DNA of 64,000 bases from contig JAUCBJ010000200.1 of assembly GCA_032718475.1 (NCBI GenBank), positions 1 through 64,000 of the forward strand. The letters are read 5' to 3'. Made by a program: the position numbers and the translations under genes. This document shows positions 17,481-48,796 of this stretch, piece after piece; positions within the stretch are counted from its first letter, which is position 1, and each line of letters starts with the position of its first letter. The stretch comes from Nemertoderma westbladi. Taxonomy: Eukaryota; Animalia; Xenacoelomorpha. Below the pieces are notes generated by a model. The model was not told the DNA's origin and made no database searches. It saw only the letters and a list, made by a program, of their open reading frames with translations.

Positions 17481-18209
17481 ATCCCTAAATCTAATACTGT
17501 ATTACGGTACCGTATCCTAACCTGCTAACTGGCTACCGGCAAGTTGCCGATGATACACAACTGCACAATCAGACAATGGCAGCTGGACAGCGGCAGTGAA
17601 ATTAATTCAGTAATTGAGTAAGAAAAGTAGCAGGCCTACTACTGTATGTACCTGCCTACGGCTATACAGTGAAAGTAGGCCTACTTATCAGAGTTTGTAT
17701 TAGGAAAATATTTCAAACTATTTATCCTGCAGTACTCACTCAGGTCAGCAGGTACTGTCAGCCTGTACAAGTCCCTAAAAGGTGCCACCCTGCTCCATAG
17801 CGCGGGAAATTCAAATGATTGGAAGACATAATTTGGGCAGTGATTTTTTATGTCCTTTTATTTGACTTTTTTTGTCCTCCTTTTTTTACGAATTATGCAT
17901 AATGACTTTTGTTGTCCTTTTAATGACTTTTATTGTCCTTTTAATGACTTTTTATGTATGTATTTCTTCAAACTGTCAGACTGCTGATTTATGGACTGTC
18001 AGACAGTTGATTTCAACATGCCTATGCCAAAACATTCAAAATTTGTTGATTTCTGGTCTGTCGGACAGTTGGTTTCACTATGCCTGTGTCAAAACATTCC
18101 ATGATTCCATGATTTATAGACTATGAGATAGAATTCCATATGCGCCTGTGGTAAAAGACTCTAAATTTAATAGTTTGTGGTTGTTGTCGATAATCGATTA
18201 CCACATGAC

Positions 18210-18771
18210 GTAGCAAAACACTCATTTTATAGCCAAAAACAATTACCAATTGATGGAAAGAAGCAGGTTAAGGCCGGATTTTCTAACCAAAACAATAAAC
18301 AGTCACTTTACCAAATCAGGGAAAGGAGCAGGTTACAGAGGCGGGATTTTCTAACCAAAACAATAAACGATCATTTAACTAATTGAGGGAAAGGAGCAGG
18401 TTACAGAGACGGGATTTTCTAACCAAAACAATAAACGATAACATTACCAATTGAGAGAAAGGAACAGGTTACAGATGCGGGATTTTCTAACCAAAACAAT
18501 AAACAGTCACTTTACCAAATCAGGGAAAGGAGCAGGTTACAGAGACGGGATTTTCTAACCAAAACAATAAACGATAACATTACCAATTGAGAGAAAGGAG
18601 CAGGTTACATAGGCGGGATTTCCTAACCAAAACAATAAACGATCACTTAATTAATTGAGGGAAAGGGGCAGGTTACAGAGGCGGGATTTTCTAACCAAAA
18701 CAATAAACAGTCACTTTACAAAATGAAGGAAAGGAGCAGGTTACAGAGGCGGGCCTTTCTAATACAATAAA
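18210..18771. repeat. 68-bp tandem satellite (about 8 copies), resuming at 31510-31590 after the LTR insertion
   Basis: Unit ggattttctaaccaaaacaataaacagtcactttaccaaatcagggaaaggagcaggttacagaggcg. Confidence 0.9.
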
Positions 18772-19948
18772 TGTAAAAGCTTTTGTGGGATAACTGATTC
18801 GTTTGCTTTGCTAACCAGTTCCCCCCAAGGCGCTGGAATACTCTAAAAGGGATCTCTAGCTCGAATAGTGCAAGCTACCGGCTGATTGGCTGATTTGCTG
18901 TACGAAGGGATCTGGGCTATGTTCGATCGTCCAACCAGCTTGGGAAGGTTGCCCCACAGCCCTGCTTTCTGTACCTGCCAATAGGATTTGAGTTGGTTTT
19001 GATTTCGACCTATCACAGATCTACTGAACTGAATTTTCCTATCTGTATGCTCATTCTCTGTGGTGGGTGGAAGCCTTTGTAAATAAGGTTATTCTTATCA
19101 GTTCAGTGTTATGTTTTTTGCCCAGAGCCTAAGAACCGGCTTTTGGCACCTCCGTGTTTTCAGTTTTTAGTCTTACACTAGTAGGCTTAATTATAAGGAC
19201 ATATATCCGTTATCATAACATAACATAACTAAACATAACATACCATACCTAATCAAACAACCTGTGCATACTTTATATTGTTATACTGCTATTTACTGTC
19301 AGTTCTTCATAATATGGTTGATGAATTATTATATTTGGAATAACGATAAATAACCCGAAAACCCAATATTCTTGATATACCGAAGGTAAGAGAGAAAGGT
19401 TACATATAACGATTGTGACTTATGTTAAAGTGGTTTGAAGTGAATCTAATGTTATTTGATAGACCCTACATGATTCGGTCCGTGTTCCTTTTATATGTGG
19501 CTAAAATCAGTGAAGATCGGCAGATCAGTGTGCAGTATTGTGCAGCATTGTGTATGAGTGAGACTGATAACGAAGCATTTCCTAAAGAATGCGCCATATA
19601 TGTGAATTATAACTAAGCCATATCGTTGTGAGTAGTTTAAGTCATAACTCTGTTTATATAGGTAGAGCGCCACGTCCTAAAGGAACTGTTAATATTTCCC
19701 GAAGGTGAATAATATTGTCAGAGATTATATAATACTGTCAGTCGAATAATACATTAGGCCTACATAGCAATACGATTAAGCCGTCGAACCCAATCTCCCG
19801 GGTATATCCAGCGGGTGAATGATCGCGCACAGATTGGTTTCGACTAGTGTAGTGAATCAAATACTTGTCATAGGCTAAAAGCGAATTATTATCTAGAAGA
19901 CATCCTAATTTGGCGGGTTAAACTGCCAAAGGTCTGAAAGCGCGAACA
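18772..19948 (+). repeat. 5' LTR of copy 1
   Basis: TGTAAAAGC...GCGCGAACA; direct repeat of 30333-31509. Confidence 0.95.
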
Positions 19949-19959
19949 ATAACGGATAT
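19949..19959 (+). promoter_or_regulatory. Non-tRNA primer-binding site complementary to LTR positions 19203-19213
   Basis: ATAACGGATAT abuts the LTR end and is the exact reverse complement of ATATCCGTTAT in the LTR; no TGG-type PBS. Confidence 0.75.
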
Positions 19960-20307
19960 TTAGTCTGTATTGCAGTGTAGGCATTAAATACAGTTTAATA
20001 TTGTTCTGGTAAGAACAATAACAGATATTGCTTCTGGATTGCGGTGTAAGCAATCTAGTCGAAAGTACCGGTCGATCGGTAACCAGTAGGCCTGACTGCC
20101 TGATCATCCGGACCGGTACCTACAGCAGTATAGGTACAGCAGTATTATTCGATTTTGATAGTTATATACCGGTAGGCCTTAATAATTAATCAGGGACTGC
20201 AGCCCTGGTTTTTTATTGAGATTTTTACTTATTTCTGTCAAGTTTTATTTGTTTGTAGGCCAGTATTGAACAGAAGGCGTGTAAGCCTGATCAGATAGTA
20301 CAGACAA

Positions 20308-20870
20308 TTTGTAGGCTGAGCTGTTGTCTGATTGCTGTTAAGTCTGAACGGATTGCAGTGTGTGTAGATCACCTGTCCGATAAAGAACGGTTAGGAAGTA
20401 GGGGCAGCCAAAGCTGTAAGGTAAACCCCCAACTAAAGAATAAGTCGTACTACTGGGTTAGAACGCATACTACCTAATCATTTCGGAGTCTGCATGTCCT
20501 GTAGTTTATTTAGGCTTGAGAGTAGTCTGCCATCGTTTGGTCTGTACTTTGTTTGTGTAGTCTGTACGGGTAGCGTATAATTTTATTTAGATAATTTGTA
20601 GGCTGGATAGTTGTCTGGCTGCTGTTGGGTTTGAGGAAATTTCGGTGTGTATAAAGCATCTGTCCGATAAAGAACGGTTAGGAAGTAGGGGCAGCCATCG
20701 CTGTAAGGTAAACCCCCATCTAAAGAATAAGTCGTACTACTGGGTTAGAACGCATACTACTTAACCATTTCGGAGTCTACATATACCGTAGTTTGTTTAG
20801 GCTTGATAGTAGTCTGTCAGTATTTGGTCTGCATTTTGTTTGAGTGGTTTGTACGCGTAGCGTAATATTT
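20308..20870 (+). ncRNA. Tandemly duplicated (about 288-bp) structured RNA element in the 5' leader
   Basis: Two copies here and two at about 45930-46500; nested stems tccga/tcgga, g(g/a)ttagg/c(c/t)taa(t/c)c, gggg/cccc, cagc/gctg, cg(t/c)..(a/g)cg with compensatory changes. Confidence 0.6.
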
Positions 20871-22194
20871 ATTATTCAGAGTTTATGCGATTATTCGCAA
20901 CATTCATTCCCCAAGTTTGTTCCTACAATAATTGTGTTTGTTATACATACCGCTATAGTTAAATTAACCCCGGTACTACACGGGCTGCTTGGCGTAGGTA
21001 AAGACTGGTGATTTTGTGCACCGGTCACTCCAGCAGATGCCGTGGTTCTTTTAGCTGTTCAAGTATATTTAACTACTGATTATATGTTGTACAAGTACTC
21101 GTACCTAATTTAGGGTTTAGTGTACAGTGCTTTCCGAAAGTAATTAGTGTAGGCATTATATTTGTGTTGTAAAGTGGTTGATAGGCACGTTCGATTAGCT
21201 CTATTAACTTCTAGGTAGGAACACTCCGTGATACATAACGTAGTACCTATAGCGATACGGCTATAGGTCGTCAGGCGGTGGTATTTTCCTATCTGGACAA
21301 CGCAGTGTATTTTACTACTACTTATTATTTTCAAATACCGTAGTACCCTGTCCGTTGTAATAACCAGATTTCTAACCCTTTGTTAGGCTGGTTTGTAGAC
21401 TTCTTGTAAAATTACCCTGAAAATTCGTATTTTGTGTTTTTTGTAAATTTTTGTGTTTATTTAGAGATTGTAATCTCACCCGAATTGTACGTAATTTGTA
21501 GTATTAAGTAACTTAGGTAAATTAGCATTATTTGTTTTAGTGTCCTATAAGTAACACTTCACTGAAAGCGTACCGCTTTGTGTAGTGATTACCCCCCAGA
21601 AATAATAACATTTATTTCAAATACTGACAAAACCCATTAAAACGGGTATATATATATTATAAATCAAATCTAACGATTTATAAATAGTAGGCCTACCATA
21701 CAACCATTAGGTCTCAATATCAGTTGGACTACTGCTCAAATAGCGGTAATAAAGTAAGTAAAGTAACCAAGTAACCCTAAAATTCAGAAATTCAATTATT
21801 TAAAATAATTGATATACCGGTATTTACGATAGGCCTATTATCTTTATTTCTATAAATTTAGGCTGAAACTATACCGGTACTTTATAATTAATTCTAGTCC
21901 AGAATTATAATTATATATACTACAAAACTGTAAGCTGTATACCGGTATTCCCGATAGGCCTATTATATATTTATATATATTTGTGCTAAAATTATACCGG
22001 TATTCTGTGATAAACCTAGTCTGTAATAATAGTTATATATACTATAAGCATACCGGTATTCTAATATATTATATATATCACGCTACACTGAGTAGCAGTA
22101 CCGGTAATTAATTACTAGGCTAGCAGTTAATACTGAGTTACTAGACTTGCTCAGACTGTAATACAGCAGTAGACATTCAACTGTACACATAAAC

Positions 22195-25100
22195 ATGTCT
22201 GATACTAAGCAGAACCTGTCAGACAGTTTATTAGATGTAACTATCTGCGACTCAGATAGAGGCGTAGAACCGTCTAGTCGTAAGTTCAGTTCACCTCCCA
22301 CTGTGAGGAAGGTCATCCCTCCTGTAGTAATAACAGAACCTAGGCTGGTCCAACATCGTAGGTCTATCATAGGCACTCGAGCTCAGGTCAAGCGGGACCA
22401 AGAAGCAGCAGAACAGCAACAACCCGCGAGCCAAGAACTTACTTCTCAACGGCCCAACAGCTCCAGTAGTGAGGATACTGTAGAACTGACACCAGAACGC
22501 GGAGCAAAGATGATGGATGCGGTTTATTCGGATCCCCTTCTCATCCTTCCTGCAGCCGTACTCACTAGGTTATTGATTGCAGTGGAAGAACACCAGATCG
22601 ATTGGGCGAGAAGTCAACGATCAACTAAAGATAATTATGCGGGATACACGAGTGAAGAACTGAAGTCTATTGTCGAGTCGCAATGGAACTTCCCCGGACC
22701 CGGACTCCCGTTTGATTTATCAGAAGCTGCCTGGGAAGACATACATCGGATGGGAGTAGCCAAAGAAACCATAGATCCCGCTGTGTGGAAGAGGTCCGCA
22801 GCCGGATACGCACAGGGATTCTTCAGCTCTATGGAGCGAGTAAAAGGACAACTGTTTCAACAACCACAAGGACCTCAAGAGCAGGGACAACTGCTTTATC
22901 AAGTTAGAGAAAGAATTCTACGAATCAGGCTAATATTATCGGCCTTTGAGGAGGCTTCTAAACGAAGGCAAGACACGTCGTTGCAAGTTGCCGTAAAGAC
23001 TTGGTTTCAAAGGGTGAGTCTCCAGGTTCAAGGAACAGCTCAGTGGAAAGCTCAGCTGGAGGAGCGCTCAACCCATGGAGAATCAACAGACGCTACTTTT
23101 TCCCAAGTGGAAAGTGAAGCGACGGCAGAGAAACCGCATAAGAGGGATGCCATTGACATCTATCTGTCAGACTATCAACGTTTTTTAGGTGATGACGAGT
23201 TGAGGAGAAGGTTAGAGGGACTTAGCCCTAATAGTGAAGGAACCAAGCTTGTGTTGGATGCCATCGATGTGGAAATGAGGGCTGCGAATCAGGCTAAATT
23301 TGATGAACAACTCCGCATCACACGAGTCCAAGAAGAACAAGTAAAGAAAAAACGTATAGAAGACAGAAAGAAAGCAGCAGTGGTAGCTGCAGAAGCAGAA
23401 AGAAAGGCGGCAGCGGCCAAGGCAAAAGCGGCAGAGGCAGCGGCCAAGGCAAAAGCGGCAGAGGCAGCGGCAGAGGCAAAAGCGGCAGAGGCAGCGGCAG
23501 AGGCAGAGGCAAAAGTGGCAGAAGCAGAACGGAAAGCGGCTGAAGAAACCACCCAATTAGAATTGGAAAACATTCAGGAGAATCAAGACTGCATAAATAA
23601 ACAGTTAGCAGCTAGTAATATGCAGATGATGAATCGATCTACTCCCAAAAGACAGGGATATACATCATCTGAGGAAGGCGATACCACCGATACTGAAGGC
23701 AAAGGAAATAGATCTCGTCTAAGCAGACGTAAAAGAACATTCCACCGTCAGAAATTGCCTGATTTGCCTCCAGCTGTTAGAAGGCAACTAAATAACACCA
23801 ACTTAGGTAGTACAGAGCCCACAGACCAAATAATTAAAATAGAAAGACTCCCTACTATAGTAGATGAGCCTGAAATAATTAGGCCTGTTCTTGAAATCAC
23901 CCCTTCGGTGATAGACACACCTGTGCTCCCTGAAACTACCTCTAAATTCCCTCTGCATAGCACTAAGCTACCTGTGCCCCGTAGAACTGCCCAGGAGACA
24001 GTTCAGGTCCTGGACCCCGAGCGAAATATTCCTGATTTGTCGCCCGTTGTCCCTCGTCCGCTCGCTACAACGTTGGCGACTCCCGCTTCGGCGGTCGAAT
24101 GGGTGGACGAGAGACGGCGGGGGATGGATCTCCTGCTCGGGCAGATGCAGGAGACGGTTCAGCAATTCAAGGGCACAGTAAGGGAAAGTAGGCTTGAGTT
24201 GCAAGAAGTGCAGCAAAGTATCGCGCTAGAACGCGATAAATTAGTAAATACACAAAGGGGTATACCACCACCCCCTGTAACAATGTGTCAACCTGTTAGG
24301 TCTGAAGTATCTCATGCGCAAGGTGTGGAGCCTACACGCATATATACTGCTAGCGAAGTAGAAACTCCTATAGTGAACCCTATTAAGGGTAATTATAGAC
24401 TTGTTGATAATGACATTCCCTATAGAACTGATCATAATCCGAGAAATTTATATACCGATAACTCGATATTAAATAACACGATGGCCCAAGAAAGTTTTAC
24501 GCGTCAAATGGCTAGAACCGAAGCCCGGCAAGCGGTAAAGGTGGGAGAGATCGTCAAGTTCAATGGAGATGAGATGAAATGGTTACCTTTTAATGAATAT
24601 TACAAAGATAACATACAGAACTCTGTACTATCTAATGGAGAAAAACTTAGATACCTCATCGAGTGCTTGGAAGGATCTCCCAAGTTAATGGCGTTAAAGT
24701 TTATTGGACATCCAGACGGATTAAGACAAGTTTGGGATACACTAAACATCAGGTATGGTAATAGGAATAACATCGCTGGGTATTTGTATGCAAAGTTGGT
24801 AGCGCCCCGAAAGTTTATTAGCAGCGGAATTATCAGAGTTTTCCGATGAGATTCAGGAGATCTGTAGACAATTAGATTGGCTAGGTAAGTCTCAGGAGTA
24901 TCAGAATGCTATGGTTATTAGAGCAGTGGCTTCTACTTTACCGAAGGGTGGAGTAGGTACACGCTGGGATAAGAAAGTGTTATATATGATGGAACAACAA
25001 CGACGAGACCCTACCATGGCTGATCTCATGTCATTCCTAGATGGAGAAGTGAAATTACAGCTCCTAAGGCAGTCCAGAGAGAAGACACTGGAAAACAAGG

Positions 25101-27133
25101 TAAGTGAGAAACCCGTTTCTAGGAGAAGGGTAACACCAGTGTGTTATACAGACGACGGCGAAAGCCAGACTTCTCAAGGAGAGGATAGCGGGAAAGACAC
25201 TGAAAGATCTTATTATGTCAATAAAACGCCTAAAGACCAGGTAAGTAAATTCAAGTCTCGAACCAATGACAGGAGAGAACAGGTAAGAAAAACTCCTCCT
25301 ACGTCTCCCAAGAGAATTCAGGTGAGAAAGCCCGAGGAAAGAACGAACGTGCACCACACAGCACATGTTAAAGTAAGTAACATCAAGCCCAAATGTGTGC
25401 TGTGCGACGGGCCCCACCGTTTAAATGCGTGTGATAAATTCCTGAGGAAATCACTAAAGGATAGACGTGAAGTCATGTGGGATAAGCGGTTGTGTTATAA
25501 TTGCCTCAGACGAGGACACCAACGGCGAACCTGTTACTCCGACGCAAGGTGTGCAAAGTGCGGTGCGAAACATCATATCTTGTTGCACACTGAATTCGAG
25601 CGAAATAGTCCGAGTCAGGTGAGTGATTCCGAACTACATGTCCAATTCAGTGATGTGAACGACACTGATCAATCTGAGATGGAAGGATTCTATACGGACG
25701 AGTTCTCCGACGAAAACGAATCCTGTTACTTAATAAACACCACCGCAGTGTATCGAGCACTCATGTATGAGAAAGACACAGACAGCGACCTCACCCTAAC
25801 TACTTCAGATCAACAACAATCTTGGAAAGCGCCAACTTCAAATGTAGGAATCCGAGAATTTCCTGTAGTCCAGTTACGGGTCCACGGACCTCAGAAGAGC
25901 TATATAGTGAACGCCCTCCTGGACTCCGGCAGCACAGGAACATTCATCGATAAAGAACTAGCCGAAGACATCTTTGCTGGACAACCCAAGTTCCGAACCA
26001 AGCTAAACATGTCAGGGATCATGCAGGTTTGGAAATCTGCTGTGGCTGCCGACTATTATATAGGTGAGTTGTCCACTCCACAGGATAAACTAGGAGAACA
26101 CAGTATAAGGTCAGTCAAAATGGTGGCAATAAAGAACTTCGCTACCACCCAAGTGGAACCTTATAATTGGGACGAAGATGATCATGCCCAACAACTTAAC
26201 ATTCCTAGATTCGACACCGATTATCCTGGAGTACAAATATTAATCGGTCAAAACGCGCATGAGGCGCTGGAGACATTAGAGAAACGACCTGCTCAACCGC
26301 AACCACTTCAGACCTATGCGGTAAGAACTAGAGTAGGTTGGTACCTTACTGGACCTTCCCGTAGAACGCTCAGAGAAAGACTGCTTCAAGATCGCGTCTG
26401 CCAGGTGAGTGAATGGGAAGATGATACTAGTGAGGGAGACGACCCAACTGAGGGAACACCATACTCCTCAGATAATGACGATATTAGCTCCAATGTAGAT
26501 CAATGGAGATATTGCCCCAAGAAGTTTAATCCAACTGACATCGCTTCCAGAGGAGCAACTCCTCAAGAACTGACAGATACTACAGACCGGTTAGGTGAAC
26601 CCGACTTCCTGAGTAAGGAGGATGAATGGCCTCCCCATCTTACTCCGACTGAGATTAGACCAGCCAAGGGAGCGGAGAAAGTCAAACCTAAAACCCGGAC
26701 GGGTGGATCGGAGTTATTTGAACCCGGGATAGATCTGTCGGTATTACATATTGCCAGGGACGACGCCGTGGATCTGGACCTCCCCACCGCGAGTGGATCC
26801 TTCATGAAGATCAGAGAGAGCGATTGGAGCTCTGGAACATCAGACGTCTCGCAGGGACTCTCACCTCTCCTGCAGGGAGCGACGGACCACTATAGCTCCT
26901 GGAATCGGCTTTGTAAGGCCGTCGTGTACCTAGAGCGATGTTTCTATCGTCACTATTCCAGGACGAAGAGGAAACCTGGAATTGTATTCGGGATGCAGCG
27001 ACTCAATCACCCAGTCGGTCGTTTGTGTTTACCGGAAGGGAATGGAGGACTCTCCGGAAACTGTGGAAGGCAAGATTCTCTTCCCACGACCACCTCCCTA
27101 ATCCTTCAAACATCTAGGGACTCCATAACGTAA
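22195..27133 (+). CDS. gag-pro: Gag-protease polyprotein of copy 1, split by a 1-nt insertion near 24834
   Basis: ORFs 22195-24849 and 24911-27133 are colinear with the single 1408-aa ORF of copy 2; DUF1759-like Gag core (KFNGDEMKWLPF..EKLRYLIECLEG), CVLCDGPHRLNAC, CYNCLRRGHQRRTC, CAKCGAKHHILLH, ALLDSGSTGTFI. Confidence 0.88.
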
Positions 27134-27678
27134 CAACATATGGAGTGGGTGTGTGACTCTATTATTTTATATTATTTTATTATTTTTATATTTATGTATG
27201 TATTACTATGTAATTTTATTATAATCGTTTTATTTAATTTAGTAGAATATTATTTAGCGATTATTTAGTAGAATAGTGCAATATATTCGTGTTTATTGCG
27301 TACGTAATTACTTATATTATATTTAGTGCGACGGCGAAGAAATAATTATTTTTCTCTTTCCTTACTGTCCGTATTATATTATAAATACGTAACTACAGTA
27401 AGATGAAATGTCCGTACTTATTAAAGTACAATAAAGCCACTACTATATTAAAGTATTATTGGTAGGCAGAGTATTAGGAATGCAAAGTTCAGATCCTCGT
27501 GTCTCGGCTAAACCAAGCTCTGGGTAGACCTTGGAAACGACTTGCCTCTTCACACTGACATTGCTTCGTGCGATATTGCTCTCATACCGTATATTAAATA
27601 ATACATATAGTAGCGTGATGTCCCTTTAACAGTAGCGTATAACGCAAAATAAATCTGTTAAACCCTTTGACCATCTGT

Positions 27679-27970
27679 AATTCTAGTCGATTAAGATATC
27701 GCGGCACCCACCGATATACTTGAAAGACAAATTCTAGAATCAGTGGTTAACGTCCCCAGACAAGTTCTGGAATAAATCGGTGCCCATCTCAAATATTAAT
27801 TATTTAATATTTGCAAATCTAATAAATCAAAATCTGTAAAATTCAGATCCTTCAACAATTCTAGTCAATTAAGATATCGTAGCATTTACCGATATTCTTA
27901 AAAGGACAATTTCATAGAATTAAGGATCTTGTGTCCCCAGACATGTTCTAGAATCAAAATATGTCCATTT
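27679..27970 (+). ncRNA. Duplicated long stem-loop (possible pseudoknot) between pro and the accessory ORF
   Basis: attctag..gtc..ttaag.atatcg-loop-cgatat.ctt(g/a)a..gac..ctagaat occurs twice; loop GGCACC is complementary to downstream GGTGCC in the first copy; conserved in element copy 2. Confidence 0.5.
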
Positions 27971-28779
27971 AATTATCAAATAATAAAATTTCAGGGAATA
28001 AATTTAAATTCATGCCTTTTAATGAATTTAATAAATTGCCATTTTTACGCAATTTATAACATTCCCAAAATTCCATTAATTAATAGATCAAGGGAGCGGA
28101 GATTTATCTTATTATGCAGTATGAGTGTGCGAAAGTCTCCCAAACATAGTCAATAGCCGATAAAATTCATAAAGTCATGTATAAAACAGGACATTGACTA
28201 TTAAAGAATTACTATTAAATAACATCCCAGATCTGTATGCATTGGAATTACCCTAATTCTACCGCTAGCTTTGCATAATGTCACCATGGCAACAACCACG
28301 CTAGAATTAGAATTGAGTTAAAAGAACAATAGAAAGCTTGTCCCATTGAATAGCATAGGGAATAAATAGCGCACTGCTAGTATCCAAGGATACATAATAA
28401 TACAGTGACATTCTGGAAGGCATTGACTAACGGACAAATGGCCCGAATGTGCGTAGTTGTGACCAGTTGTGTGGTATTTGTGAGTTTATAGGTGAATGTT
28501 ACTGCTAAAGTGTGTTTACAGTAGCTAGTCGCAATCGTGAAAGTAACCTAACTCTCCAAGGAAAACCTGAAGTACATCTAAGCCTTTGGGACGGACAGTG
28601 GAGTGACTTGTGCCGGTTGTCGTTGTCGTTGTGCGGCTACGTCGTTGGCGAAAGTACAGCGGCGACAACACATCGGCGCTGAGGATCTCGCACTGTCCGG
28701 GGGCTGATTGGGGTAGGCAGCGACGCCCGCTCGCCTAAATATAAACTCATTATAATATGGATAAATTTATATAGCAGAT

Positions 28780-29910
28780 ATGATTGAGTTGATAGAAGAT
28801 GATCTTGGTATCAGGGAGCGATATACTCTACCTTTACAAGCGTTTGTTGATAGCTTGATACACGGCGACGCTGGTCCAACTGCTGCGGAGGACGATGATC
28901 GTTATATCGAACCGCCAATGTCCCAAGAGCAGCTCACGCGTGAGTTGGACTATAAGAAATTCACCGCTCGCTATACGCATCGTAATGGTACGTATGTGGA
29001 CTTCTTAACTACTGGTCATCCTATCGATTTACACGATACGGACAATGTCGACACCAAAAGGGAAATGGTACGATTGAAATATCCTACCCAGCGGAGGCGG
29101 AACGATAAACCGAGAATGGAACACGAGAATTCTATTCGAAACAGACTCGAAAGAGAAGACGTTGAGGAGCCGGATAAACGCAGCGACTTCAACGATTATC
29201 TGGAATTCCTGATAGAAACATATCTCAATATTGCCAGTCAACAAAATCTAGAAACTCGATATCCTCAAGGTATACATCATGACCGCATGGTAGAACTCAA
29301 ACGGCTCGATTCCCCTATGATGTATCTTACCGCCGATCGACCGCTACCTGTTGTACCGAATAGCTTCGAACGGATGGAGGAATATTGTAAGCTGGAGAAA
29401 GATCACTCGCGTTTCCCCTACAAGACGTACGTTTTTGGGTATTATTGCGATGAATGCCCAAGACCCAACCAACAAACGGAAAGACATAAACATCCGCGGA
29501 GACGTTGCTTTAAACACGGTTTTACTCGCTATACTTACGGGAGTTTCGAGCGAAACTTGTTCAATGTATCACCTACGCTCGTTCGACTCAGACGATCCTT
29601 AAATAAACCAATGATCAGAGTTTCGGAATACTCGATCAGAGCTCCTCATTCCCTAGTGAGGCCTCAGACTCTTGATCCTATTAGTATGACGGATCCTCCC
29701 GAGCTGTACTCACTGCTCAAAGATCTAGTGTTACCTGAACGATTAGACGGTGGCACCCCAGTTGTGGGTTTCTTAGATATTAGCCCATCCTACCTAGCCG
29801 GATTGGGACGCGGACATTTAATATCGCCGTTTAACCCTTACCATCGTCCCGGCTTGACACGATATAACCTGTCACCAGAGTGGCGGAGAACGTTGTACCA
29901 AAAGAGATAG
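28780..29910 (+). CDS. Accessory ORF of the LTR element (376 aa, unknown function, CDEC..HKH..CFKH motif)
   Basis: Sense ORF in the env position; homologous decayed copy at 33379-34711; no signal peptide or TM helix evident. Confidence 0.7.
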   Translation: MIELIEDDLGIRERYTLPLQAFVDSLIHGDAGPTAAEDDDRYIEPPMSQEQLTRELDYKKFTARYTHRNGTYVDFLTTGHPIDLHDTDNVDTKREMVRLKYPTQRRRNDKPRMEHENSIRNRLEREDVEEPDKRSDFNDYLEFLIETYLNIASQQNLETRYPQGIHHDRMVELKRLDSPMMYLTADRPLPVVPNSFERMEEYCKLEKDHSRFPYKTYVFGYYCDECPRPNQQTERHKHPRRRCFKHGFTRYTYGSFERNLFNVSPTLVRLRRSLNKPMIRVSEYSIRAPHSLVRPQTLDPISMTDPPELYSLLKDLVLPERLDGGTPVVGFLDISPSYLAGLGRGHLISPFNPYHRPGLTRYNLSPEWRRTLYQKR

Positions 29911-30324
29911 ACGCTATTCTACAAAGATCAGAAAAGAAATCTATGTTTGCTCAGATAAACCTAAATTATAACAGCAAGTCCAAGCGGTAAACGATATTGA
30001 ACTTGGACGACCCTATTCTCGGTGAGAGTTTTAGACGAACGTATCCAACGATGAGAGGAGGAAAATCAGCTCGAGGAGAAACATATTGAAACGGCGGATA
30101 CCCCGACTATAATCCCACGCCTTCTGATGCAATCATATTGCACCCTTCACCCAGGAGTGATAGCCCTCCTTGTAAAGTGGCTCGCCCCAAAGAGAAAAAG
30201 ACTCTTGCTAGCTTTAAAAAACTGCGTAAACGCCGTCTGCGCAAGAAAGACTAACTGTTTAGAGTATTCTCGTATTTTAGAAACTGTGATTTTGTATATT
30301 TTATAGACTTAAATCCCATTTTCT

Positions 30325-30332
30325 GGGAGCAG
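30325..30332 (+). promoter_or_regulatory. Polypurine tract
   Basis: GGGAGCAG immediately before the 3' LTR (GGGAGCGG in copy 2). Confidence 0.65.
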
Positions 30333-31509
30333 TGTAAAAGCTTTTGTGGGATAACTGATTCGTTTGCTTTGCTAACCAGTTCCCCCCAAGACGCTGGAAT
30401 ACTCTAAAAGGGATCTCTAGCTCGAATAGTGCAAGCTACCGGCTGATTGGCTGATTTGCTGTACGAAGGGATCTGGGCTATGTTCGATCGTCCAACCAGC
30501 TTGGGAAGGTTGCCCCACAGCCCTGCTTTCTGTACCTGCCAATAGGATTTGAGTTGGTTTTGATTTCGACCTATCACAGATCTACTGAACTGAATTTTCC
30601 TATCTGTATGCTCATTCTCTGTGGTGGGTGGAAGCCTTTGTAAATAAGGTTATTCTTATCAGTTCAGTGTTATGTTTTTTGCCCAGAGCCTAAGAACCGG
30701 CTTTTGGCACCTCCGTGTTTTCAGTTTTTAGTCTTACACTAGTAGGCTTAATTATAAGGACATATATCCGTTATCATAACATAACATAACTAAACATAAC
30801 ATACCATACCTAATCAAACAACCTGTGCATACTTTATATTGTTATACTGCTATTTACTGTCAGTTCTTCATAATATGGTTGATGAATTATTATATTTGGA
30901 ATAACGATAAATAACCCGAAAACCCAATATTCTTGATATACCGAAGGTAAGAGAGAAAGGTTACATATAACGATTGTGACTTATGTTAAAGTGGTTTGAA
31001 GTGAATCTAATGTTATTTGATAGACCCTACATGATTCGGTCCGTGTTCCTTTTATATGTGGCTAAAATCAGTGAAGATCGGCAGATCAGTGTGCAGTATT
31101 GTGCAGCATTGTGTATGAGTGAGACTGATAACGAAGCATTTCCTAAAGAATGCGCCATATATGTGAATTATAACTAAGCCATATCGTTGTGAGTAGTTTA
31201 AGTCATAACTCTGTTTATATAGGTAGAGCGCCACGTCCTAAAGGAACTGTTAATATTTCCCGAAGGTGAATAATATTGTCAGAGATTATATAATACTGTC
31301 AGTCGAATAAGACATTAGGCCTACATAGCAATACGATTAAGCCGTCGAACCCAATCTCCCGGGTATATCCAGCGGGTGAATGATCGCGCACAGATTGGTT
31401 TCGACTAGTGTAGTGAATCAAATACTTGTCATAGGCTAAAAGCGAATTATTATCTAGAAGACATCCTAATTTGGCGGGTTAAACTGCCAAAGGTCTGAAA
31501 GCGCGAACA
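30333..31509 (+). repeat. 3' LTR of copy 1
   Basis: Direct repeat of 18772-19948. Confidence 0.95.
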
Positions 31510-32081
31510 ATAAACGGTCACTTTACCAAATCAGGCAAAGGAGCAGGTTACAGATTTTCAAACCACGCGGGATTTTCTAACCAAAACAACCGGTCAGCCG
31601 GTAGGCCTACCAGTACCGTATTTAAATGGTAGGCTACACAGTAGGCCTACAGCAGTACCGGTGCCGGTTCCGGTACTAAAATACAGAAATGCCTGCTTTA
31701 TACCTACATCTGTACATACAATACAGCAAAATAGTGCTATATATACTAATACCGGTACTGATAGCCTGAGAGAACAGCAGTAGAGAAACCGGTAGCATGG
31801 AACCTAACATTAGATTTTTGGAGGACATAAAAAAAATAAAAAAAAATGACAAAAAAAGGATTTAAACGGACAATAAAAATTATTGCGTATAATTGTACTG
31901 GCGGAAAGGGTGGCAGATTAGTTCTGGCACCTATATTTTAGCGGTAAATTCAAATCTGTTTTAACATTGAATACATGAATAGAGTAAGACTTAAAATGTA
32001 ATTCATTGAATCAGAATAAATTATTTCTTACCGGTTTAACTCACTCATCCGTTATTGTTGTTGTTTTATCTATTCTGGGAC

Positions 32082-33300
32082 TGTTCGCGCTTTCAGACCA
32101 TTGGCAGTTTAACCCGCCAAATTAAGATGTCTTCTAGATATTAAATCGCTTTTTAGCCTATGACAAGTATTTGATTCACTACACTAGTCGAAACCAATCC
32201 GTGCGCGACCATTCACCCGCTGGATATTCCCGGGAGATTGGGTTCGACGGTTTAATTTTGTTGCTATGTAAGCCTAATGTATTATTCGACTGACAGTATT
32301 ATATAATCTCTGACAATATTATTCACCTTCGGTAATATTAACAGTTCCTTTAGGACGTGGCGCTTTATCTATAAACAGAGTTATGACTTAAACTACTCAC
32401 AACGATATGGCTTAATTATAATTCACATATATGGCGCATTCTTTAGGAATTGCTTCTTTAACAGACTCACTCATACACAATGCTGCACAATACTGCACAC
32501 TAATCTGCCAATCTTCACTGATTTTAGTCACATATAAAAGGAACACAGGCTGACTCATGTAGGGTCTATCAAATAACATTGGATTCACTTCAAACCACTT
32601 TAACATAAGTCACAATCGTTATTGGTAACCTTTCTCTCTTACCTTCGGTATATCAAGAATATTGGGTTTCGGGGTTGTTTATCGTTATTCCAAATATAAT
32701 AATTCATCAACCATATTATGAAGAACTGACAGTAAATAGCAGTATAAAACAACAACTGAACACTGATTGTTATGAGTTTGCAATGTTTCAGCAGTCAGTA
32801 TGTATGATCAGTTAGCAGTGATTCCATGAGTTTTATCGGTACGTCAGTTAAAGGATATATGCCCTTTATAATTAAACCTACTAGTGTAAGACTAAAAACT
32901 GAAACACGGAGGTGCCAAAGCCGGTTCTTAGGCTCTGGGCAAAAACATAACACTGAACTACTGAGTTTCTGTATATACCTCCAACACAAAGACAACAAAC
33001 GCTCTGATTGGTCAACCTGAACAACGAGAGAACAGAGAAACAAAGAAACGTCGACGTGGCAATATCAGCTGCTAGCTGTCGTCATGGTAGCGACACTGTT
33101 TTCAAGAGTATCGAGCTTTTACGTCACTGAATTACGGATTATGTCCTCTAAAGTACAAATACAGAAGAAATAGCTCTTATGTCCGCTAAAACACCAGTAC
33201 AGCAAGGACACGGCCTTTTTATGCCTGGTAAACCAACTACAGAGTACTTTACGGGAAAAATAAGGAAAAATAACCGGACAATTCAGTAAAAGCTTTTACA
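32082..33300 (-). repeat. 3' LTR of copy 2
   Basis: Direct repeat of 46804-48022; preceded on the minus strand by a PPT. Confidence 0.95.
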
Positions 33301-36369: not shown

Positions 36370-39300
36370 TTACGTTATGGAGTCCCTAGATGTTTGAAGG
36401 ATTAGGGAGGTGGTCGTGGGAAGAGAATCTTGCCTTCCACAGTTTCCGGGGAGTCCTCCATTCCCTTCCGATAAACACAAACGACCGACTGGGTGATTGA
36501 GTCGCTGCATCCTGAATACAATTTCAGGTTTCCTCTTCGTCCTGGAATAGTGACGATAGAAACATCGCTCAAAGTATATGACGGCGTCACGAAGCCGATT
36601 CCAGGAGCTATAGTGGTCCGTCGCTCTCTGCAGGAGAGGTGAGAGTCCCTGCGAGACGTCTGATGTTCCAGAGCTCCAATCGCTCTCTCTGATCTTCATG
36701 AAGGATCCACTCGCGGAGGGGAGGCCCAGATCCACGGCGTCGTCCCTGGCAACATGTAATACCGACAGATCTATCCCGGGTTCAAATAACTCCGATCCAC
36801 ACGTCCGGGTTTCAGGTTCGACTTTCTCCGCTCCCTTGGCTGGTATAATCTCAGTCGGAGTAAGATGGGGAGGCCATTCATTCTCCTTACTCAGGAAGTC
36901 GGGTTCACCTAATCGGTCTGTAGTATCTGTCAGTTCTTGAGGAGTTGTTCCTCTGGAAGCGATGTCCGTTGGATTAAACTTCTTGGGGCAATATCTCCAT
37001 TGATCTACATTGGAGCTAAGGTTGTCATTATCTGAGGAGTGTGGTGTTCCCTCAGTTGGGTCGTCTCCCTCACTAGTATCATCTTCCCATTCACTCACCT
37101 GGCAGACGCGATCTTGAAGCAGTCTTTCCCTGAGCGTTCTACGGGAAGGTCCAGTAAGGTACCAACCTACTCTAGTTCTTACCGCATAGGTCTGTAGGGG
37201 CTGCGGTTGAGCAGGCCGTTTCTCTAATGTCTCCAGCGCCTCATGCGCGTTTTGGCCGATGAGTATTTGCACTCCAGGGTAATCAGTCTGGAATCGAGGT
37301 ATGTTAAGATGTTGGATGCTCTCATCCTCGTCCCAATTATAAAGGTCTGCTTGAGTAGTAGCGAAGTTCTTTATAGTCACCATTTTCACTGACCTGATGC
37401 TATGTTCTCCTAGTTCGTCCTGGGGGGTGGACAACTCACATATATAATAGTCGGCAGCTACAGTAGAATTCCAAACCTGCATGATCCCTGACAGGTTTAG
37501 CTTGGTTCGGAACTTGGGTTGTCCAGCAAAGATGACTTCGGCTAGTTCCCTATCGATGAATGTTCCTGTGCTACCGGAGTCCAGGAGGGCGTTCACTATA
37601 TAGCTCTTCTGAGGTCCGTGGACTCGTAACTGGACTACAGGAAATTCTCGGATTCCTATATTGGAAGTTGGCGCTTTCCAAGATGGTTGTTGATCGGAAG
37701 TAGTTAAGGTAAGGTCGCTGTCTGTGTCTTTCTCATACACGAGTGCTCGATACACTGCGGTGGTGTTTATTAGGTAACAGGATTCGTTTTGGTCGGAGAA
37801 CTCGTCCGTATAGAATCCTTCCATCTCAGATTGATCAGTGTCGTTCACATCACTGAATTGGACATGTAACTCGGAATCACTTACCTGACTCGGGCTGTTT
37901 CGTTCGAATTCCGTGTGCAACAAGATATGATGATTTGCGCCGCACTTTGCACACCTTGCGTCGGAGTTACAGGTTCGCCGTTGGTGTCCTCGTCTGAGGC
38001 AATTATAACACAACCGCTTATCCCACATGACTTCACGTCTATCCTCGAGTGATTTCCTCAGGAATTTATCACACGCATTTAAACGGTGGGGCCCGTCGCA
38101 CAGCACACATTTCGGCTTGATGTTACTTACTTTAACCTGTGCTATGTGGTGCACACTTGTTCTTTCCTCGGGCTTTCTCACCTGAATTCCTTTAGGAGAC
38201 GTAGGAGGGGTTTTTTGTACCGGTTCCCTTCTGTCATTGGGTCGAGACTTGGATTTACTTACCTGTTCTTTAGGCATTTTATTGACATAATAAGGCCGGT
38301 CAGTGTCTTTCCCGCTGTCCTCTCCTTGAGAGGTTTGGCTTTCACCGTCGTCGGTATAACATACTGGTGTTACCCTTCTCCTAGAAACGGGTTTCTCACT
38401 TACCTTGTTTTCCAATGTCTTCTCTCTGGACTGCCTTAGGAGCTGTAATTTCACTTCTCTATCTAAGAATGACATGAGATCAGTCATGGTAGGGTCTCGT
38501 CGTTGTTGTTCCATCATATATAACACCTTCTTATCCCAGCGTGTACCTACTCCACCCTTGGGCAAAGCAGATGCTAAGGCTCTTACAACCATAGAATTCT
38601 GGTATTCATGAGACTTACCTAGCCAATCTAATTGTCTACAGATCTCCTGAATCTCATCGGAAAACTCTATAATCCCGCTGCTAAGAAACTTTCGGGGCGC
38701 CATTAATTTTGCATACAAATACCCAGCTATGTCATTCCTATTACCATACCTGATGTTTAGTGTATCCCAAACTTGTCTTAATCCATTTGGATGTCCAATA
38801 AATTTTAACGCCATTGACTTGGGAGGTCCTTCCAAACATTCGATGAGGAATCTAAGTTTCTCTCCGTTAGATAGTACAGAGTTCTGTATGTTATCTTTGT
38901 AATATTCATTAAAAGGTAACCATTTCATCTCATCTCCATTGAACTTGACAATCTCTCCCACCTTCACCGCTTGCCGGGCTTCGGTTCTAGCCATTTGACG
39001 CGTAAAACTTTCTTGGGCCATCGTGTTATTTAATATCGAGTTATCGGTATATAAATTTCTCGGATTATGATCAGGTCTATAGGGAATGTCATTATCAACA
39101 GGTCTATAATTACCCTTAATAGGGTTCACTATAGGAGTTTCTACTTCGCTAGCAGTATAGATGCGTGTAGGCTCCACACCTTGCGCATGAGATACTTCAG
39201 ACCTAACAGGTTGACACATTATTACAGGGGGTGGTGGTATACCCTTTTGTAAATTTACTAATTTATCGCGTTCTAGCGCGATATTTTGCTGCACTTCTTG

Positions 39301-40596
39301 CAACTCTAGCCTACTTTCCCTTACTGTGCCCTTTAACTGTTGAACAGTCCCTTCTAACTCTCGGACCTGTTGAGAGGAGCGTGCTTGATTCTCCTCCATC
39401 TTTCCGAGGAGAATGTCCATCCCCCGCCGTCTCTCGTCCACCCAATCAACCGCCGAAACGGGATCCGCCAACGTCGTAGCGGGCAGACGAGGGACAACGG
39501 GCGACAAATCAGTAATATTTCGCTCGGGGTCCAGGACCTGAACTGTCTCCTGGGCAGTTCTACTGGGCACAGGTAGCTTAGTGCTATGCAGAGGGAATTT
39601 AGAGGTAGCTTCAGGGAGCACAGGTGTGTCTATCACCGAAGGGGTGATTTCAAAAACAGGCCTAATTATTTCAGGCTCATCTACTATAGTAGGGAGTCTT
39701 TCTATTTTAATTATTTGGTCTGTGGGTTCTGTGCTGCCTAAGTTGGTGTTATTTAGTTGCCTTCTAACAGCTGGAGGCAAATCAGGCAATTTATGACGGT
39801 GGAATGTTCTTTTACGTCTACTTAGACGAGATCTATTTCTCTTACCTTCAGTATCGGTGGTATCGCCTTCTTCAGATGATGTATATCCCTGTCTTTTGGG
39901 AGTAGATCTATTCATCATCTGCATATTACTAGCTGTTAACTGTTTACTGAAGTCGTCTTGCTTCTCTTGAAGATTTTCCAACTCCAGTTGGGCGATCTCT
40001 TCAGCCGCTCTCCGTTCTGCTTCCGCCACCGCTGCCGCTTTTGCCTCTGCCGCTGCCGCTTTTGCCTCTGCCTTTGCTTCTGCTGCTGCCGCTGTTGCCT
40101 TTGCCTCTGCTTCTGCTGCTGCCGCTTTTGCCTTTGCCTCTGCTTCTGCTGCTGCCGCTTTTGCCTTTGCCTCTGCTTCTGCTGCTGCCGCTTTTGCCTT
40201 TGCCTCTGCTTCTGCTGCTGCCGCTTTTGCCTCTGCCGCTGCTTCTGCCAAGGTCGCTTTTCTTTCTGCCTCTGCCACTGCTGCTATCTTTCTGTCTTCT
40301 ATACGTTTTTTCCTTACTTGTTCTTCTTGTTCTCTAGCGATGCGGAGTTGTTCATCGAATTTAGCCTGATTCGCAGCCCTCATTTCCACATCGATGGCAT
40401 CCAACACAAGCTTGGTTCCTTCACTATTAGGGCTAAGTCCCTCTAACCTTCTCCTCAACTCGTCATCACCTAAAAAACGCTGATAGTCTGATAGATAGAT
40501 GTCAATGGCATCTCTCTTATGTGGTTTCTCTGCTGTCACTTCGCTCTCGGTTGTATCTAGTAGACTGTCTGACAGGTTCTGCTTTGCGTCAGACAT
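36370..40596 (-). CDS. gag-pro: Intact Gag-protease polyprotein (1408 aa) with RNase H C-terminal remnant; no RT or IN
   Basis: Same motifs as copy 1 in one open frame; AEAKA-type helical repeat; LLDSGS; WRYCPKKFNPTDIASRG..PDFL..WP..SSWNRL. Confidence 0.9.
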   Translation of the reverse strand: MSDAKQNLSDSLLDTTESEVTAEKPHKRDAIDIYLSDYQRFLGDDELRRRLEGLSPNSEGTKLVLDAIDVEMRAANQAKFDEQLRIAREQEEQVRKKRIEDRKIAAVAEAERKATLAEAAAEAKAAAAEAEAKAKAAAAEAEAKAKAAAAEAEAKAKAAAAEAEAKATAAAAEAKAEAKAAAAEAKAAAVAEAERRAAEEIAQLELENLQEKQDDFSKQLTASNMQMMNRSTPKRQGYTSSEEGDTTDTEGKRNRSRLSRRKRTFHRHKLPDLPPAVRRQLNNTNLGSTEPTDQIIKIERLPTIVDEPEIIRPVFEITPSVIDTPVLPEATSKFPLHSTKLPVPSRTAQETVQVLDPERNITDLSPVVPRLPATTLADPVSAVDWVDERRRGMDILLGKMEENQARSSQQVRELEGTVQQLKGTVRESRLELQEVQQNIALERDKLVNLQKGIPPPPVIMCQPVRSEVSHAQGVEPTRIYTASEVETPIVNPIKGNYRPVDNDIPYRPDHNPRNLYTDNSILNNTMAQESFTRQMARTEARQAVKVGEIVKFNGDEMKWLPFNEYYKDNIQNSVLSNGEKLRFLIECLEGPPKSMALKFIGHPNGLRQVWDTLNIRYGNRNDIAGYLYAKLMAPRKFLSSGIIEFSDEIQEICRQLDWLGKSHEYQNSMVVRALASALPKGGVGTRWDKKVLYMMEQQRRDPTMTDLMSFLDREVKLQLLRQSREKTLENKVSEKPVSRRRVTPVCYTDDGESQTSQGEDSGKDTDRPYYVNKMPKEQVSKSKSRPNDRREPVQKTPPTSPKGIQVRKPEERTSVHHIAQVKVSNIKPKCVLCDGPHRLNACDKFLRKSLEDRREVMWDKRLCYNCLRRGHQRRTCNSDARCAKCGANHHILLHTEFERNSPSQVSDSELHVQFSDVNDTDQSEMEGFYTDEFSDQNESCYLINTTAVYRALVYEKDTDSDLTLTTSDQQPSWKAPTSNIGIREFPVVQLRVHGPQKSYIVNALLDSGSTGTFIDRELAEVIFAGQPKFRTKLNLSGIMQVWNSTVAADYYICELSTPQDELGEHSIRSVKMVTIKNFATTQADLYNWDEDESIQHLNIPRFQTDYPGVQILIGQNAHEALETLEKRPAQPQPLQTYAVRTRVGWYLTGPSRRTLRERLLQDRVCQVSEWEDDTSEGDDPTEGTPHSSDNDNLSSNVDQWRYCPKKFNPTDIASRGTTPQELTDTTDRLGEPDFLSKENEWPPHLTPTEIIPAKGAEKVEPETRTCGSELFEPGIDLSVLHVARDDAVDLGLPSASGSFMKIRESDWSSGTSDVSQGLSPLLQRATDHYSSWNRLRDAVIYFERCFYRHYSRTKRKPEIVFRMQRLNHPVGRLCLSEGNGGLPGNCGRQDSLPTTTSLILQTSRDSIT

Positions 40597-41525
40597 GCTT
40601 ATGTGTACAGTTGAATGTCTACTGCTGTATTACAGTCTGAGCAAGTCTAGTAACTCAGTATTAACTGATAGCCTAGTAATTAATTACCGGTACTGCTACT
40701 CAGTGTAGCGTGATATATAATATATTAGAATACCGGTATGCTTATAGTATATATAAGTATTATTACAGACTAGGTTTATCTCAGAATACCGGTATAATTT
40801 TAGCACAAATATATATAAATATATAACAGGCCTATCGGAATACCGGTATACAGCTCACAGTTTGTAGCATATATAATTCTGGACTAGAATTAATTACAAG
40901 TACCGGTATAATTTCAGCCTAAATTTATAGAAATAAAGATAATAGGCCTATCGTAAATACCGGTATGCAGTTTACACTTATAGTGTATATATATAAGTAT
41001 AATTACAAACTAGAATTAATTACAGAATACCGGTATGATTTCAACCTAAAATTTATAGAAATAAATATAATAAGCCTACTGTAAATACCGGTATATCAAT
41101 TATTTTAAATAACTGAATTTCTGAATTTCAAGGGTTACTTGTTACTTTACTTACTTTATTACCGTTATTTGAACAGTAGTCCAACTGATATTGAGACCTA
41201 ATGGTTTTATGGTAGGCCTACTATTTATAAATCGTTAGATTTGATTTATAATATATATATACCCGTTTTAATGGGCTTTGTCAATATTTGAAATAAATGT
41301 TATTATTTCTGGGGAGTAATCACTACACAAAGCGGTACGCTTTCAGTGAAGTGTTACTTATAGGACACTAAAACAAATAATTCTAATTTATATATATTTC
41401 AATACACCCCGGGCGGGGTAAATATGCGGTAAAATTAATTATAAAAACACACAGTAAAAGGTCGTTCACTTGTAAAATAAATATTAAGTATAAAATATTA
41501 TTATTATTATTTAACTGGAAGATGA

Positions 41526-44366: not shown

Positions 44367-45128
44367 TCAGTTTGAACTCGACTCCGGCCGGTTCAGCCAG
44401 GGTCGGCGAGGTTTAAGTCCAAAAGTTTCCCGTTCAGCGTTGGTTAAACGGTAATTTCTTATTGTTATACCCTCCGTCCAGAGAGATGGGTCCATTAGTT
44501 TGTCGCGGTCGTCTTGGTCGGCGATAAGATGGAAGCTGTTATATATGGAGTCGGGGTGAGGTTGTATGGCGATTACCTCCTCGAAGGGGATAGCCTCCGC
44601 TTTAAGGTAGTCGCCAATATCTTTGCTGGTTACCTCCGGGTCGAGACGCCCAATGTGAATGTGGGCTTTGCGGGGGCCCGGCGCGTTGCGCTGTGGTTGT
44701 GTAGGGGGGACTGCGCGAAGTATTCCTCCCTGTCTGTTGCCGCGAATAGTTGGTGGCCTTGCCGCTCCGTTGGGCCTACCCGCGGCAGGTGGGGAAGTGC
44801 TCTGGGTGGTCGGAGTGTTGGTAGAGTGCGATGAGAGGAGCGTTGGTCCGGCACCATTGGCGGGGTTGGTGCGCAGGGCATCAGAATATCGGGGAGATGG
44901 CTGGACGGCCGTATTTTTACATTCAATGAGAGCGTTCTTTGAGGTTATAGATTCCGCGCGGGCATCCGCAAGTTTACCAACTACAATGGTATACATTGAA
45001 GTCATCCTTGTGAGTCCGTCGATTAGCTGACGTTCCACGCCGTTGTTCACATTTTTCTTTTCTTTAATTAGTTTTACTAGAGAGATAACCTCATTCTGAA
45101 TTTTTATGTATTCCTCGGCATCAGCCAT
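44367..45128 (-). CDS. LINE ORF1 (coiled-coil plus RRM-like C-terminal domain)
   Basis: ATG at 45128 (MADAEEY); IHIGRLDPEVTSKDI..SFHL..LMDPSLWTEGITIRNY is typical of LINE ORF1 RRM-like domains. Confidence 0.8.
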   Translation of the reverse strand: MADAEEYIKIQNEVISLVKLIKEKKNVNNGVERQLIDGLTRMTSMYTIVVGKLADARAESITSKNALIECKNTAVQPSPRYSDALRTNPANGAGPTLLSSHSTNTPTTQSTSPPAAGRPNGAARPPTIRGNRQGGILRAVPPTQPQRNAPGPRKAHIHIGRLDPEVTSKDIGDYLKAEAIPFEEVIAIQPHPDSIYNSFHLIADQDDRDKLMDPSLWTEGITIRNYRLTNAERETFGLKPRRPWLNRPESSSN

Positions 45129-46787: not shown

Positions 46788-46803
46788 GGCATATATCCTT
46801 TAA
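46788..46803 (-). promoter_or_regulatory. Non-tRNA primer-binding site of copy 2, complementary to LTR positions 47570-47585
   Basis: Minus-strand TTAAAGGATATATGCC abuts the 5' LTR; 16-nt perfect complement GGCATATATCCTTTAA lies inside the LTR. Confidence 0.78.
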
Positions 46804-48022: not shown

Positions 48023-48796
48023 GGGACTTCGAGCAGCACGTGATCACGTGAACAACTAAGCTGACTGGTTAACTAGTCTGGGACTTTGAGCAGCACGTGA
48101 ACAACTAAACTGGCTGGTTAACTAGTCTGGGGCTTCGAGCAGCACGTAAACAACTAAGCTTACTGGTTAACTAGTCTGGGACTTTGAGCAGCACGTGAAC
48201 AACTAAGCTGGCTGGTTAACTAGTCTGGGACTTTGAGCAGCACGTGAACAACTAAACTGGCTGGTTAACTAGTCTGGGGCTTTGAGCAGCACGTGAACAA
48301 CTAAGCTGACTGGTTAACTAGTCTGGGTCTTCGAGCAGCACGTGATCACGTGAACAACTAAGCTGACTGGTTAACTAGTCTGGGTCTTCGAGCAGCACGT
48401 GAACAACTACGCTTACTGGTTAACTAGTCTGGGACTTCGAGCAGCACGTGAACAACTAAGCTGACTGGTTAACTAGTCTGGGACTTTGAGCAGCACGTGA
48501 ACAATTAAACTGGCTGGTTAACTAGTCTGGGGCTTCGAGCAGCACGTGAACAACTAAGCTGACTGGTTAACTAGTCTGGGTCTTCGAGCAGCACGTGATC
48601 ACGTGAACAACTAAGCTGACTGGTTAACTAGTCTGGGACTTCGAGCAGCACGTGAACAATTAAACTGGCTTGTTACCTAGTTTGGAACTTCTAGCTGCAC
48701 ACGTGAACAACTAAGCTGACTGGTTAAATAGTCTGGGGCTTCGAGCAGCACGTGAACAACTAAACTGGCTGGTTACCTAGTCTGGGACTTCGAGCA
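48023..48796. repeat. About 49-bp tandem satellite (about 15 copies)
   Basis: Unit gggacttcgagcagcacgtgaacaactaagctgactggttaactagtct. Confidence 0.92.

Follow-up and report, generated by a model that had tools for sequence, protein, structure and literature searches.

The window analysed here is a 64,000-nucleotide stretch of DNA (64 kb) from the xenacoelomorph Nemertoderma westbladi (assembly GCA_032718475.1, contig JAUCBJ010000200.1, positions 1 to 64,000 of the forward strand). It contains two related long terminal repeat (LTR) elements that run in opposite directions, with copy 1 occupying 18772-31509 on the plus strand and copy 2 occupying 48022-32082 on the minus strand, whose primer-binding sites (PBSs) are complementary to their own LTRs and suggest that reverse transcription is primed by the element's own RNA. 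Each copy has direct LTRs running from TG to CA, a 5-bp target-site duplication (TSD) and a purine tract 5′ of the 3′ LTR. The LTRs of copy 1 (5′ LTR 18772-19948 and 3′ LTR 30333-31509, plus strand; 1177 nt) differ from each other at 2 positions and are flanked by the TSD ATAAA; the purine-rich tract, at the position of a polypurine tract (PPT), is 30323-30332 on the plus strand. The LTR pair of copy 2 (5′ LTR 46804-48022 and 3′ LTR 32082-33300, minus strand; 1219 nt) also has 2 differences, with the TSD GTCCC.

The gag-protease region of copy 1 (22162-27133, plus strand) is spread over two frames, and copy 2 has a gag-protease open reading frame (ORF; 36370-40629, minus strand) with DUF1759, a zinc-knuckle region, a protease motif and a ribonuclease H (RNase H) remnant. 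DUF1759 of Gag (PF03564) scores above the Pfam cut-off in both copies. Both keep the protease motif together with a short remnant of RNase H and lack reverse transcriptase (RT), most of RNase H and integrase, an absence missed in the preliminary description of this DNA. All homologues found (18/18) are BEL/Pao-type polyproteins, with PF05380 and/or PF03564 in 14/14 and 4/4, and the family is present in high copy in four sequencing runs (contigs of X1, X3, X4 and X5). Because of the near-identical LTR pairs, the TSDs, the BEL/Pao-type homologues and the missing RT and integrase, the two copies are assigned to a young non-autonomous BEL/Pao family. The filing as BEL/Pao-derived rests on protein ancestry, the transfer RNA (tRNA) site described for the group being absent. 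As to the PR-RT-RH-IN domain order and the RT phylogeny that serve as criteria for BEL/Pao, the copies have no RT or integrase and keep of RNase H only a remnant, and a gag-protease tree placed the window sequence on a long branch and was discarded as unusable for subclade placement.

A primer-binding site complementary to the element's own LTR

In copy 1 the PBS lies directly 3′ of the terminal CA (19949-19959, plus strand) and is the exact reverse complement, over 11 nt, of 19203-19213 (plus strand) in the same LTR, the predicted 3′ segment of the primer. The site of copy 2 (46788-46803, minus strand), read from 46803 to 46788, is an exact 16-nt complement of its own LTR at 47585-47570, the predicted primer segment of that copy (47570-47585, minus strand). 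The complement begins in both at the first base after the LTR CA, and the pairing direction fits priming at the LTR end, with extension starting at the terminal CA. [quoted passage not shown] The LTR ends are fixed independently of the complement, because they are set by the TG and CA termini, the 5-bp TSDs and the near-identical LTR pairs. A complement of at least 11 nt arose in 4/5000 dinucleotide shuffles of the copy 1 LTR, and one of at least 16 nt in 0/5000 of the copy 2 LTR; at internal positions the same lengths occurred at 6/10343 (copy 1, 11 nt) and 0/13450 (copy 2, 16 nt). The complement is contiguous in both window copies, and the best match across a splice-like junction at offset 0 is 8 nt; a search for a hidden intron that would lengthen the complement of the window family found none.

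The two copies differ at positions 1 and 5 of the motif, and the paired positions 19213 and 19209 change as well, so that both differences are compensated. When the site of one copy is set against the segment of the other, only 5 nt pair exactly. Since each change in the site has its counterpart in the segment, the latter appears to be held complementary rather than constant. One substitution and four single-base gaps separate the copies in the 98 nt that precede the 16-nt segment region, and LTR similarity stops one base, a common C, past the segment. A hypervariable patch (19214-19280, plus strand) begins one base after the predicted primer end. The preliminary description had noted the missing tRNA-type site, the two own-LTR complements, their covariation, their position at the LTR end and the break in LTR homology, and these observations were confirmed.

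Chance, or a one-off duplication by template switching, has a negligible share in the explanation. With the least strict null, which allowed offsets 0-4 and both contiguous and spliced matches, the 11 nt of copy 1, taken alone, were reached in 7/300 shuffles, and the segment belongs to a local hairpin of low stability (-2.0 and -5.0 kcal/mol); against this, the 16 nt of copy 2 were reached in 0/300, the complement occupies the same place in both copies with two compensated changes, and it recurs in 14/14 of the distant relatives described below. A search for tRNA genes in the window found none, and an Rfam search of 18700-20300 gave one chance-level match only. A 12-nt match to the LTR end plus primer site of copy 1 also lies in the spacer between the elements (32046-32057, minus strand) and may be chance or a remnant.

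A second helix beside the primer-binding site

Directly behind the PBS of copy 1 lies the leader arm (19960-19982, plus strand) of a second helix, whose LTR arm (19758-19779, plus strand) overlaps 19769-19780, the place of canonical polyadenylation (poly(A)) hexamers in other copies of the family. In copy 2 the leader arm is 46771-46785 (minus strand) and its partner 46995-46979. The helix comprises 21 bp at -27.4 kcal/mol in copy 1, reached by 2/300 shuffles, and 14 bp at -17.9 kcal/mol in copy 2, reached by 13/300; cross pairs between the copies give -9.7 and -15.0 kcal/mol, and three pairs are altered on both sides. Because copying of the primer cannot account for this helix, RNA structure adjoining the primer site appears to be under selection. 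The helix is possible only in the 5′ LTR and may hide the poly(A) signal there. The leader arm (19965-19990; 46785-46765) can alternatively pair locally with a partner bearing AATAAA or ATTAAA about 30 nt past the LTR end, a predicted alternative that is a possible switch. As a trait of the wider clade the second helix was ruled out (at most 1/13 relatives).

Near the LTR end an 8-bp hairpin (19909-19931, plus strand) is identical in both 5′ LTRs and is presumably U5-IR-like. Tf1, the self-priming element of Schizosaccharomyces pombe, reportedly needs a U5-IR-like structure. Tf1 also has a U5-leader stem.

Other copies of the family

Contigs of the window family cease matching at 19214 in 4/4 runs (X1, X3, X4 and X5) and continue with differing letters in all four, as read from 19 of the 41 contig loose ends. 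Contig depth falls from 19192 on, which implies that the segment itself varies too. The contigs are too short to phase a site with its segment, and at least five different site sequences occur within the family. A third segment allele, seen in runs X3 and X5, finds its complement in the window only at a duplicated site, 20018-20028, within a diverged second version of the junction between LTR end and primer site (20013-20054, plus strand; 34/42 nt identical) that fits this other family allele and not that of copy 1. Because the third allele pairs only with the duplicate, the LTR-adjacent site, unlike the displaced duplicate, appears to track the allele of copy 1 itself.

Self-complements in distant BEL/Pao relatives

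Metagenome contigs yielded 78 BEL/Pao loci, 31 of them with a long-range direct repeat. From these, 14 with a usable LTR end were chosen by eye; the other 17 were dropped because the repeat was truncated where the contig stops, or was of a tandem or internal kind. All 14 have intact BEL/Pao pol similarity and none has a TGG site (0/14). In 13/14 an exact self-complement of 10-15 nt stands at offset 0-4, reached by 0 to 12 of 300 shuffles. Three relatives (L029, L033 and L069) carry it contiguously, and 11/14 (L001, L012, L014, L015, L020, L021, L026, L027, L057, L064 and L077, scored in their 3′ LTRs) attain it only once a GTAAG..AG intron of 67-164 nt is removed from the LTR, the spliced junction pairing with the primer site. 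All 11 introns have GTAAG donors although any GT was permitted. This splicing of the complement in most relatives had escaped the preliminary description. A C directly follows the primer end in 13/14 relatives and in both window copies. A blind scan covered 38 of the other 64 loci, those with enough upstream DNA, and found junction matches in 9/38 against 0.3 expected, several being repeats of the same families; the 29 loci with no match include many that probably have no LTR.

In an RT/RNase H tree (FastTree, no outgroup) the contiguous pair L033/L069 groups with the spliced L020 and L057 with support 99, and because of this grouping the contiguity of L033 and L069 suggests intron loss. The window family itself looks like a version without the intron of a broader BEL/Pao system, most of whose members splice the complement; its membership would rest on the common signature and not on a tree. 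A DNA pattern scan of the metagenome contigs for the window family gave 0 matches, and the viral contigs searched held no relatives of it.

Site diversity bears on the view that the pairing is a structural or regulatory helix serving packaging, dimerisation or poly(A) masking, with an unrecognised host RNA or tRNA fragment as the real primer. Such a role would agree with the second helix, which shows selected long-range pairing outside the primer site, and with the tRNA priming that the ICTV gives for Belpaoviridae. A host primer, however, would keep the site constant, and the family's several site sequences and the unrelated ones of the 14 relatives all lack TGG; the helix also stops at the LTR end in the priming direction. 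This view is accordingly held to be distinctly unlikely.

Similarly improbable is priming in trans, in which a separate short RNA made by any LTR, solo LTRs included, and terminated at 19213 or trimmed back to it, would substitute for a tRNA and leave the genomic RNA uncut. A high-copy family offers many LTRs for this; the model is compatible with the covariation and the sharp boundary at 19214, and it would explain why the relatives retain their LTR introns. Yet each copy's site fits its own LTR allele and not that of the other copy, which favours action in cis, and no common terminator-like feature follows 19214.

Transcript ends and the nature of the primer

A core promoter and start-site zone is predicted at 19080-19110 (plus strand), with a TATA-like motif at 19080 and initiator (Inr)-like motifs at 19098 and 19103; similarity between the LTRs of the two copies begins at 19100. 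Transcription would start near 19100-19105, and on these motifs the start would precede the segment by about 100 nt, whereas that of Tf1 is at the segment. Canonical poly(A) hexamers occur at 19769-19780 in copy 2 (ATTAAA) and in many other family contigs. The R region probably ends near 19800, some 560 nt past the segment.

The position of these hexamers bears on the two primer models of the preliminary description, a cleaved 5′ fragment and a genomic RNA whose 3′ end, at 30774, folds back onto the site. Letters resembling TATAAA or ATTATA 15-20 nt upstream of the segment end, and the break of similarity at that end, would suit the second model. The canonical hexamers nevertheless lie about 560 nt downstream of the segment, and AATAAA or ATTAAA, present in 9 relatives, is downstream of the primer end in 9/9; there is no U-rich element after 19214, and an RNA with a poly(A) tail could not prime. 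Because the hexamers are so far downstream, fold-back is disfavoured, to the point of being very improbable, and the cut 5′ fragment is favoured.

A shorter, Tf1-like primer of 11-20 nt would require an RNA whose 5′ end, whether set by transcription, splicing or trans-splicing, falls just upstream of the segment. In 5/5 alleles seen an AG is present 16 nt ahead of the segment end, the helix of copy 2 folds with probability near 1 if the RNA starts at the segment, and a TATA-like motif of relative L064 would set the start right at the primer; Tf2 has alternative starts according to the accessible portion of PMC5341516. On the other hand, a TATA-like motif is missing 25-30 nt upstream of the segment, as is a strong donor between 19100 and the AG. 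The 100 nt that precede the segment are kept between copies whose U3s are otherwise unrelated, and relatives L001 and L027 appear to imply primers of about 115 nt. A short primer is therefore considered unlikely.

Strong splice-donor-like and acceptor-like motifs are kept in both LTRs downstream of the segment (19302, 19386, 19705 and 19741), and one donor-like motif lies on the minus strand near 19176. Judged from these motifs, splicing at 19302, 19386, 19705 or 19741 could remove the primer site from a gag mRNA.

Proposed mechanism

Self-priming in this BEL/Pao family is supported by the covariation, the second co-varying helix and the 14 distant relatives, all of it evidence read from sequence. 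The claim of the preliminary description that the family primes from its own RNA stands to that extent, as a partly supported one. Self-priming in some form, all modes taken together, is regarded as very likely, and the specific proposal that minus-strand DNA is primed by a 5′ fragment of the element's own RNA, which would measure about 100-110 nt and be released by cleavage immediately past the segment, as probable. The RNA would start near 19105, and the segment ending at 19213 would pair with 19949-19959. The second helix (19758-19779 with 19960-19982) would close a domain beside the site and may also mask the poly(A) signal of the 5′ LTR. RNase H borrowed from an autonomous partner would cut between 19213 and 19214, and extension of the primer would start at the terminal A of the LTR. 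The strong-stop DNA would then end at 19214 and transfer to the long R of the 3′ LTR, which extends to about 19800. Site and segment would be kept in step because plus-strand copying of the primer end would rewrite the primer site.

Several observations weigh against this proposal. The fold predicted for copy 1 (19100-20000) lacks the primer helix, with a penalty of 15.8 kcal/mol for imposing it, while copy 2 bears no such penalty. The LTR of copy 1 has no canonical poly(A) hexamer of its own, and the second helix recurs in no more than one of the 13 relatives. No autonomous partner of the window family was found in the homologue searches. Complementarity in further members, a check that the preliminary description had proposed, extends to 14/14 relatives if L057 is counted post hoc, and for two further primer-site variants, from X3 and X4, the segments listed include no partner. 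For L057 the match was initially reached by 276/300 shuffles, the alignment having overrun, and 11 nt were obtained after a post-hoc correction of the LTR end. Close pairs occur among the 14 (L021/L026, L033/L069 and L012/L027), so not all are independent. The relatives are also distant from the window family, with 20-30% identity over the longer gag-protease matches and a long branch.

A broader proposal is put forward tentatively, at slightly short of an even chance. In a large marine-animal branch of BEL/Pao, tRNA priming would have been replaced by a self-made, tRNA-sized, capped 5′ fragment whose pairing end is usually spliced from an LTR intron. The window family would be an intron-less descendant, with its site rewritten each cycle and a second helix that couples priming to hiding of the poly(A) signal.

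Other features of the elements and the window

Copy 1 has a 3′ ORF of 381 codons (28765-29910, plus strand) with a broken counterpart in copy 2; no Pfam or Atlas match and no family were found for it. This orphan frame occupies the env position and is 53-77% identical to its broken counterpart. The leader of copy 2 contains a long interspersed nuclear element (LINE) with APE endonuclease and RT (41390-45271, minus strand), which has a 946-codon endonuclease-RT frame and a duplication of about 15 nt, within a host copy whose LTRs differ at 2 places only. Behind a common 13-nt end the U3 regions of the two copies are unrelated (18785-19099 and 48009-47682), and the remaining LTR is about 89% alike, a pattern that points to U3 exchange within the family. 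The copies are arranged tail to tail with 572 nt between them; a 68-nt tandem array surrounds copy 1, and copy 2 lies on the margin of a 49-nt array (18203-18771, 31510-31590 and 48023-48796). Elsewhere in the window, Ssu72 and phosphatase frames (the pair 54662-55309 and 60002-60970) are intron-less, apparently whole and 5 kb apart; the phosphatase is taken to be of the PP4 type.

Relation to known systems and significance

In Tf1 the RNA's first 11 bases pair with the site and RNase H cuts between bases 11 and 12 (PMC7175516, PMC4600332 and PMC5341516, as far as the accessible parts of these papers go). Like Tf1 and Tf2 of S. pombe, Tj1, the Tf1/sushi group and Tcn1, which are chromoviruses of Ty3/gypsy, the window family has no tRNA site, has an LTR-derived complement of about 11 nt in a direction that fits priming, and has neighbouring helices. 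By analogy the feature would work like Tf1 self-priming, yet without being a Tf1/sushi member. The window family has a BEL/Pao gag-protease and not a Ty3/gypsy chromovirus polyprotein, its copies lack their own RT and RNase H, and most of its relatives would assemble the complement across an intron. The segment would also lie about 100 nt inside the transcript, whereas that of Tf1 is formed by the first 11 bases.

The likeness to the Belpaoviridae of the ICTV extends to the DUF1759 gag, the protease and RNase H remnant matching BEL/Pao polyproteins, the LTRs near 1.2 kb and the PPT position. The window family differs in having no 18-nt tRNA-Arg or tRNA-Gly site, in the deletion of RT and integrase and in the extra 3′ ORF of no known family, and it appears to conflict with the description of the Belpaoviridae as tRNA-primed. 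Self-priming has also been predicted in Tcn1 and, outside the Tf1 group, from sequence in TAR-lineage Ty1/copia elements of plants such as Houba and Osr-1 (PMC6317226, in the part available). The TAR elements belong to another superfamily and to hosts of another kingdom, and that part of the paper describes no splice junction or long internal primer in them. A literature search, with subscription journals and Repbase notes outside its coverage, found no publication that treats self-priming, or primers made by splicing, in BEL/Pao. The main texts of PMC3118150 and PMC554778 contain no occurrence of PBS or tRNA, and the accessible parts of PMC3601003, PMC5443660, PMC8220671 and PMC3286476 hold nothing on BEL/Pao priming. 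The second co-varying helix, the poly(A) evidence against fold-back and the self-complement in 14 relatives are additions made by this analysis.

Should the proposed mechanism hold, a third LTR superfamily would have evolved self-priming, here by means of a long internal primer, and primer formation in most relatives would include a splicing step without described parallel in the literature searched. Failed PBS annotation in such elements would be explained, and sharp RNA ends would be predicted at 19213/19214. Fragments of tRNAs silence LTR elements, and self-priming would free the elements from such silencing as well as from dependence on the tRNA supply.
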